Notes under the pieces: generated by a model
What the model was told of the DNA's origin: nothing
Databases searched by the model: none
What the model saw: only the letters and a program-made list of their open reading frames with translations
IMG/VR virus record: IMGVR_UViG_2778261529_000002
Span: 1 to 43,597 of that record
Origin: a virus
Taxonomy: Duplodnaviria; Heunggongvirae; Uroviricota; Caudoviricetes
Direction: 5' to 3' (one strand)
DNA: 43,597 bases
Made by a program: the position numbers and the translations under genes
In this document: positions 29,757 to 30,209 of the stretch, one piece after another
How the letters are laid out: the number at the start of each line of letters is the position of its first letter
How positions within the stretch are numbered: position 1 is the stretch's first letter

Positions 29757-30209
29757 ATGGAATTCGAAATCAAAGGCGTGAAATATCGCGTGGCAAAACT
29801 CAGCGTTTTTGACCAGCTGAAAGTGACCCGCAAACTTCTGCCGGTACTGGCGGGAATGATGTCAGATTTCGGGAGCATTCGCTCCCTGTTGCCTGTTGAT
29901 GGCAAAATCGACACCGTGAAATTCGATCAGTTGAAAACGGTATTTGAAACCCTGCTTCCGCGTATCGCTGAGGAACTGTCTTCCCTGACTGAAGAAGACA
30001 CCAACGCGATTATTCATCCGTGCCTGGCCGTAGTATCACGTAAGCACATGGACGGATGGACGCCGATATTTAAAAGCGGTCAGCTGATGTTCGATGATAT
30101 CGACCTGCTAACCATGCTGCAGCTGGTGGCGCGGGTGGTCGCCGATTCGCTGGGAAATTTTTTGCCCGTGAGCCCTACCAGCCCGACGCCGGGCCAGCTT
30201 CAGGGTTGA
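29757..30209 (+). CDS. Tail assembly chaperone (G-like)
   Basis: Position before tape measure; slippery site near its 3-prime end. Confidence 0.7.
   Translation: MEFEIKGVKYRVAKLSVFDQLKVTRKLLPVLAGMMSDFGSIRSLLPVDGKIDTVKFDQLKTVFETLLPRIAEELSSLTEEDTNAIIHPCLAVVSRKHMDGWTPIFKSGQLMFDDIDLLTMLQLVARVVADSLGNFLPVSPTSPTPGQLQG

Follow-up and report, generated by a model that had tools for sequence, protein, structure and literature searches.

The locus described here raises the question of how the second of two overlapping reading frames in a phage tail module is translated. The window, that is, the whole stretch of 43,597 nucleotides that was analysed, contains an open reading frame (ORF) at 29757-30209, and a further ORF, 30206-30397, follows in the -1 frame. 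An earlier note on this DNA had claimed that the heptamer T_TTT_TTG, located near the end of the first ORF, causes a -1 frameshift, by which the two ORFs would yield a tail assembly chaperone pair of the G/GT type.

The region is a contractile-tail prophage, in which the genes for the sheath, the tube and the chaperone, the -1 ORF and the gene for the tape-measure protein follow each other in this order (Table 1), with baseplate genes farther downstream of the tape-measure gene. The same order is found in the relatives, and the chaperone locus occupies the canonical place of a G/GT-type pair, between the tube gene and the tape-measure gene. The product of the first ORF is, judging from its family matches, a tail assembly chaperone: the match to Phage_TAC_15 lies above the Pfam curated cut-off. 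The ORF starts with ATG, preceded by a Shine-Dalgarno sequence with a duplex energy of -7.6 kcal/mol. The tape-measure protein is presumed to be its client. Apart from DUF6889, the -1 ORF also matches PHROG 4364. An AF2 model of the 79-aa extension is of low confidence (mean pLDDT of 63.8, below 50 for residues 1-13); it shows hardly any regular structure before about residue 38, followed by a short helix and, at residues 50-77, a long one.

Table 1. Features of the chaperone locus and of the neighbouring genes (positions in the window).
Feature	Position	Strand	Evidence or remarks
Tail sheath gene	28157..29302	+	Pfam DUF3383 (1.5e-99); PHROG 205, tail sheath (4.5e-134)
Tail tube gene, immediately 5' of the chaperone gene	29313..29753	+	Pfam PF11681 (KPP10_Orf10, also listed as Phage_Tube_PhiTE; 8.8e-61)
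Zero-frame ORF of the putative tail assembly chaperone (G-like short product, 150 aa)	29757..30209	+	Phage_TAC_15 (5.2e-32); PHROG 1688 (6.3e-63)
Extended slippery tract G_GGA_AAT_TTT_TTG	30152..30164	+	13-mer GGGAAATTTTTTG; three nested in-phase X_XXY_YYZ heptamers
Core slippery heptamer T_TTT_TTG	30158..30164	+	P site UUU (Phe), A site UUG (Leu)
Predicted -1-frame continuation after the shift (77 aa)	30164..30397	+	Open frame, TGA at 30395-30397; identity and entropy in relatives
TTG opening the mechanically called ORF 30206-30397	30206..30208	+	Not a credible initiation site; Shine-Dalgarno duplex -2.5 kcal/mol
DUF6889 domain, T-like, C-terminal end of the predicted fusion	30272..30388	+	Pfam PF21829 (4.4e-22), residues 39-77 of the 79-aa translation from 30158
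Tape-measure protein gene, with C-terminal lytic transglycosylase domain	30387..32396	+	PHROG 2276 (5e-253); Pfam SLT (8.6e-25)

Two other features of the tail module were observed. In the tape-measure gene, A_AAG_GGT occurs in phase 17 codons ahead of the stop, and the gene that follows is in the -1 frame relative to it (32345-32396). This looks like ordinary translational coupling and not like a second frameshift, because the next gene has an ATG of its own at 32396, in an ATGA overlap. Farther downstream, the baseplate hub gene is separated from the spike gene by an insert of low GC content (34314-35508, 0.37-0.45 compared with 0.53-0.56 in the flanks). The insert contains three ORFs on the same strand, encoding 119 aa (with a signal-peptide-like N-terminus), 185 aa (with several hydrophobic stretches) and 70 aa, for none of which a match was obtained in Pfam or PADLOC, and it looks like a moron cassette within the tail module.

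From position 30150 onwards, the chaperone ORF reads CTG GGA AAT TTT TTG CCC. As the codons AAT, TTT and TTG begin at 30156, 30159 and 30162, respectively, the TTTTTTG at 30158-30164 is phased T_TTT_TTG in the zero frame, just as the earlier note had stated, and the stretch from the heptamer to the end of the TGA stop (30207-30209) counts 52 nt. This core heptamer is overlapped by two others that are in phase as well: G_GGA_AAT, starting at 30152, and A_AAT_TTT, starting at 30155. The -1 frame stays open between 30098 and 30397, while the +1 frame closes at 30171; past the slip site, 79 codons are left in the -1 frame versus 17 in the zero frame. The downstream ORF in the -1 frame, which the note had also reported, does exist, with TTG as its first codon and a length of 63 aa.

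By itself, the heptamer is not significant, because its frequency is at chance level: 15 copies of TTTTTTG were counted on both strands of the window, compared with an expected 13.2 +/- 3.9, and its mere presence was set aside as evidence. In-phase heptamers of the form XXXYYYZ occur 35 times in the approximately 11,800 codons of a crude gene set of the window. Only at the chaperone site among these 35 does the -1 frame outrun the zero frame without having its own ATG. The case for a frameshift is made by the position of the site, the long open -1 frame and the conservation in relatives.

Related loci were gathered from GenBank phages, E. coli genomes, IMG/VR, GTDB genomes and metagenomes. De-duplication left 218 unique full-length loci, with chaperone identities down to about 45%, and comparisons of entropy, identity and start codons were made on an anchored, ungapped set of 141 unique loci. 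The locus is present in 338 of 5,426 complete E. coli genomes, and the region of the window is 98.8% identical to E. coli prophages over 1.4 kb. Identities of 79-90% were found with the Escherichia phages vB_EcoM-606R2 and relatives, Yersinia phage YP3 and Salmonella phage SEN34 (Brunovirus); several Klebsiella phages are about 69% identical to the locus.

An enterobacterial-type tail module is also present in two records labelled as Flavobacteriia, Elizabethkingia phage EKP1 (L010, OM284015.1; about 68% nucleotide identity to the window) and a contig of Chryseobacterium sp. 18061 (L103; chaperone identity of 73%). These records may have wrong host or source labels, or may derive from contaminated samples. 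Three members of the collection look like decaying copies: L100 (Apirhabdus apintestini), in which the chaperone ORF is broken after 47 codons, L131 (Enterobacter sp. R1), in which the -1 extension is cut to 21 codons, and L144 (an Arsenophonus MAG), in which the -1 frame past the T run shuts before the zero-frame stop and a run of seven T is retained.

An in-phase run of six or seven T is present in all 218 unique loci, 43-58 nt before the zero-frame stop. It is followed in 216 of them by a -1 extension of about 60-66 codons (the two loci without the full extension look like decaying copies), and the +1 frame is not consistently open. The full 13-mer G_GGA_AAT_TTT_TTG is found in 192 of the 218 loci and GGGAAAT in 194; about 24 unique loci have no G_GGA_AAT, and ten have neither of the two upstream heptamers. 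The heptamer ends in G in 209 loci, in T in eight and in C in one; a run of seven T was counted in nine of the 218. In five loci (L125, L142, L144, L146 and L213), a -1-frame stop (TAG, TAA or TGA) stands directly 5' of the T run, so that a shift can only take place there on T_TTT_TTN or downstream of it; in three others (L006, L008 and L010), a -1-frame stop is located just 5' of GGGAAAT. On this comparison, T_TTT_TTN is the one universal element of the slip site.

Within the 141 aligned loci, none of the six T varies, the two at zero-frame wobble positions included. The five successive wobble positions from -6 to +6 have entropies of 0.25, 0.33, 0, 0 and 0.28 bits, whereas those of the other upstream wobble sites amount to 0.66-1.63, with the exception of the single-codon Met and of one site at 0.26. 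A T as last base is more common where both upstream heptamers have been lost (L125, L142, L144, L202 and others): it is present in four of these ten loci versus five of the other 208 (Fisher p = 2.6e-4, a value that ignores kinship among the loci). This is a hint that TTTTTTT may compensate for lost slip capacity in these lineages.

The frame under selection changes at the same place. Upstream of the tract, the mean entropy at zero-frame codon positions 1, 2 and 3 is 0.32, 0.24 and 0.78, the signature expected for coding sequence (141 loci). From the heptamer to the zero-frame stop (+7 to +42), the means are 0.76, 0.71 and 1.21 for codon positions 1, 2 and 3 of the -1 frame, and the most variable site past the heptamer is the second position of the zero-frame codons. 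Translated in the -1 frame, the same overlap nucleotides give a mean pairwise amino-acid identity of 0.69, compared with 0.44 in the zero frame; this identity is 0.72 both for the chaperone body and for the whole -1 tail. The switch of the wobble variability from the zero frame to the -1 frame falls exactly at the T run, with the onset of -1-frame conservation lying about 16 codons upstream of the TTG at 30206. Together, the switch in entropy and the contrast in identity imply that the -1 frame is read as protein from the T run onward.

No stimulatory element was identified around the site. Folded singly, the downstream stretch 30165-30264 gives a hairpin no better than those of shuffled sequences (MFE z = -1.56), the predicted folds differ among 36 diverse relatives, and the RNAalifold consensus has an energy of only -0.29 kcal/mol with two pairs and no covariation. 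Rfam yielded no match, except for a snoRNA hit at chance level. On these four grounds, a downstream stimulatory RNA structure was rejected. A Shine-Dalgarno-like stimulator upstream, GGGTGGTC at 30133-30140, is not supported either, as the wobble positions are variable there; those from -9 to -18 have entropies of 0.93-1.63. Since no stimulatory element was found, the efficiency of slipping is not predictable.

Taken together, a fusion of the chaperone and DUF6889 is most probably made by a -1 frameshift at T_TTT_TTG. The G/GT-like pair that the earlier note had suggested is supported by the gene order, the protein families, the T run in 218 of 218 loci and the switch in selection. Most ribosomes would translate from the ATG at 29757 to the TGA at 30207-30209 and make the 150-aa chaperone. 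A minority would move back by one nucleotide in a tandem -1 slip on U_UUU_UUG, in which the P-site tRNA-Phe would re-pair from UUU to UUU and the A-site tRNA-Leu from UUG to UUU; the latter re-pairing is imperfect, which counts against the model. After the slip, GCC at 30164 would be read next, and translation would continue in the -1 frame to the TGA at 30395-30397. The long product would thus consist of chaperone residues 1-136 followed by 77 aa, a GT-like fusion of 213 aa with a linker and DUF6889 (predicted sequence ...VVADSLGNFL-AREPYQPD...EDNER).

The products differ in their predicted peptides. A tandem slip on T_TTT_TTG predicts the tryptic junction peptide VVADSLGNFLAR (...LGNFLARE...). 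In the case of a slip on an upstream heptamer, a slip in the P site only or an extra U added by RNA polymerase, the junction would read ...LGNFF-ARE..., with VVADSLGNFFAR as the predicted peptide. The predicted C-terminal peptide of the short form is VVADSLGNFLPVSPTSPTPGQLQG.

For lambda (G/GT) and P2 (E/E+E'), the established picture is that the short and long forms bind or coat the tape-measure protein; the additional domain at the C-terminus of the long form presumably docks the complex to tube subunits, or recruits these, during tail assembly. By analogy, both products of the present locus would bind the tape-measure protein, and DUF6889 would dock the complex to the tube subunits. The efficiency of the slip would set a fixed ratio of short to long form, with no RNA structure involved.

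The main alternative on the ribosome is that the same fusion arises in the window phage mainly by slipping on G_GGA_AAT (30152) or A_AAT_TTT (30155). Both heptamers are in phase and GGGAAAT is widely kept, including its rare GGA codon. The low entropy of the GGGAAAT wobble positions would fit part or most of the slipping occurring one or two codons earlier, as would the more frequent final T in loci without both heptamers. However, the loci that lack GGGAAAT or both upstream heptamers, several of them with a -1-frame stop at this place, still keep the T run and the -1 ORF, and for this reason T_TTT_TTN is sufficient and the sole universal element. Moreover, E. coli ribosomes shift poorly with AAU in the A site. 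A site lying mainly upstream is, on balance, unlikely. Transcriptional slippage is a very improbable source of the fusion. In that case, RNA polymerase would add a U in the run of six T, the two ORFs would be fused in some of the mRNAs and the ribosome would not shift at all. Although the conserved core is a homopolymer, extended to seven T in a few loci, bacterial RNA polymerase slips efficiently at A or T runs of about 8-9 nt or more, and the six T of the window and of 209 of the 218 loci are well under this length. The run is also kept in X_XXY_YYZ phase in every locus, and the identical heptamer of P2 is ascribed to ribosomal frameshifting in PMC3091744. Single-ORF proteins of 212-213 aa with both Phage_TAC_15 and DUF6889 are present in public assemblies (the P0001 cluster, P0121-P0133 and CDL28562.1 of E. 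coli ISC7). Some of them can be read in favour of slippage, as seven T in the DNA yield a single 213-aa ORF; this is the case for L012 (Logan SRR23924998 contig, 2477-2495), with T7 in place of T6. Yet the other members have the junction NFAYTP (T4) or NFCLHP/NFCLPP (T5 with a second indel), a mixture typical of homopolymer sequencing errors. As these fused ORFs look like such errors or like rare mutants, they were not counted as 'Rosetta stone' evidence for the fusion.

The least probable explanation is that the DUF6889 ORF is an independent small gene with a non-canonical start (the TTG at 30206 or a CTG at 30233), the heptamer being incidental. It agrees with the mechanical ORF call, which opens at the TTG, and with RefSeq (PGAP), which lists a separate 54-aa 'DUF6889 family protein' beginning at the CTG (30233-30397 in the window, 2421-2585 in L002). 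A functional start of this kind, which the earlier note had named as speaking against a frameshift, is nevertheless not credible. The Shine-Dalgarno duplex at the TTG is weak (Table 1) and there is no Shine-Dalgarno match at the CTG (+0.4 kcal/mol), compared with -6.6 to -8.6 kcal/mol at five of six neighbouring gene starts and -4.0 at the sixth (32396). The TTG reads TTA in SEN34 and in Klebsiella phage Mulock. No start position for the -1 ORF is conserved among the 141 relatives, and in 93 of them, no ATG, GTG or TTG is present between the heptamer and the DUF6889 domain. The called N-termini are inconsistent too: database entries of DUF6889 measure 46-78 aa and have at least six different N-termini, which differ even among near-identical sequences. 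Finally, conservation of the -1 frame begins well before the TTG, at the T run.

Frameshifting on T_TTT_TTG thus remains the preferred reading, to which the two upstream heptamers probably add chances of slipping in most members of the family. Such a contribution to the yield is suggested by the almost constant retention of GGGAAAT with its rare GGA codon, and the enrichment of T as last base where both upstream heptamers are lost is a hint in the same direction. A possible, still tentative extension is that the functional unit is the 13-nt tract and not the classical heptamer. Four consecutive tRNAs (Gly, Asn, Phe and Leu) can re-pair in the -1 frame, which would give three successive chances to slip; these would take the place of a stimulatory structure, and a T as last base would make up for the upstream loss. 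If this is true, a useful rate of frameshifting would be reached without a stimulatory RNA structure, U_UUU_UUU being the perfect variant.

Xu, Hendrix and Duda reportedly described, in 2004, the tail-chaperone frameshift of the G/GT type as a conserved one. At the level of sequence, the present locus has the features of this type: the gene position, a -1 overlap without start signals, a conserved in-phase slip site, selection in the -1 frame and a chaperone family. Phage lambda has a non-contractile tail and shifts on G_GGA_AAG. It shares with the window the position between the major tail protein and tape-measure genes and a late -1 shift giving two proteins with a common N-terminus, and the nested G_GGA_AAT resembles its slip site. 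The chaperone family and the tail type are different, and here T_TTT_TTN is universal while GGGAAAT is dispensable in some lineages. Frameshifting in the dnaX gene of E. coli (tau/gamma) depends on a Shine-Dalgarno-like element upstream and on a hairpin downstream. The two systems have in common an enterobacterial host and the tandem -1 slip on an X_XXY_YYZ heptamer, but in the present locus, wobble positions beyond -6 are variable and there is no conserved downstream structure, and hence no stimulator of the dnaX type was recognized. A close case is an orthologous locus, CPT_Mulock_014/015 of Klebsiella phage Mulock (MN098327.1), which is 69% identical in nucleotides and shares both the 13-nt tract and the -1 ORF; its frameshift product is an annotated one.

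For phage P2, a -1 shift on TTTTTTG without a downstream hairpin gives E (91 aa) and E+E' (142 aa), as stated in PMC3091744, which cites Christie et al. 2002 and Xu et al. 2004. According to the same source, P2 is alike in having a contractile tail, a pair adjoining the tape-measure gene, the same TTTTTTG near the end of the short ORF, a single start and no structure. The differences are found in the proteins and in the surroundings of the site: here the pair consists of Phage_TAC_15 and DUF6889, with 150 and 213 aa, the heptamer is usually embedded in the 13-nt tract with three heptamers, and the frameshift of this pair is predicted from sequence. No homology to P2 E or E' was detected by hmmscan against Pfam (E <= 0.01), in which the short ORF matched nothing but Phage_TAC_15 and the extension nothing but DUF6889; the heptamer in common is thus a likeness in mechanism and not a sign of family membership. 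The locus combines a slip mechanism of the P2 type (same heptamer, no structure) with a position like that of lambda G/GT, and is a member of neither sequence family.

In the databases, the -1 ORF is handled in different ways. The records of SEN34, YP3, vB_EcoM-606R2 and EKP1 leave an interval of 180 nt unannotated, and many DUF6889 entries bear the name 'NTP pyrophosphohydrolase', which is also used in older records. The GenBank record of Mulock contains a joined CDS, 'tape measure chaperone frameshift product'. Neither the Mulock nor the window fusion sequence had an exact match in the protein collection, and a literature search on DUF6889 and on phage Mulock found nothing.

The finding adds one more family to a textbook phenomenon, and it suggests what DUF6889 probably does, namely to serve as the T-like domain in a chaperone of the GT type. 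Pairs of Phage_TAC_15 and DUF6889 are widespread among enterobacterial prophages and usually mis-annotated, by two kinds of error: either the -1 ORF is not called, or it is given as a separate gene, named 'DUF6889 family protein' or 'NTP pyrophosphohydrolase', whose CTG or TTG start is arbitrary. The natural series of sites (13-mer, heptamer only, U7) is suited to measuring the additivity of overlapping slippery heptamers. The main value is practical, a rule for the right annotation of these phages: DUF6889 is to be annotated as the probable C-terminal extension of the tail chaperone.
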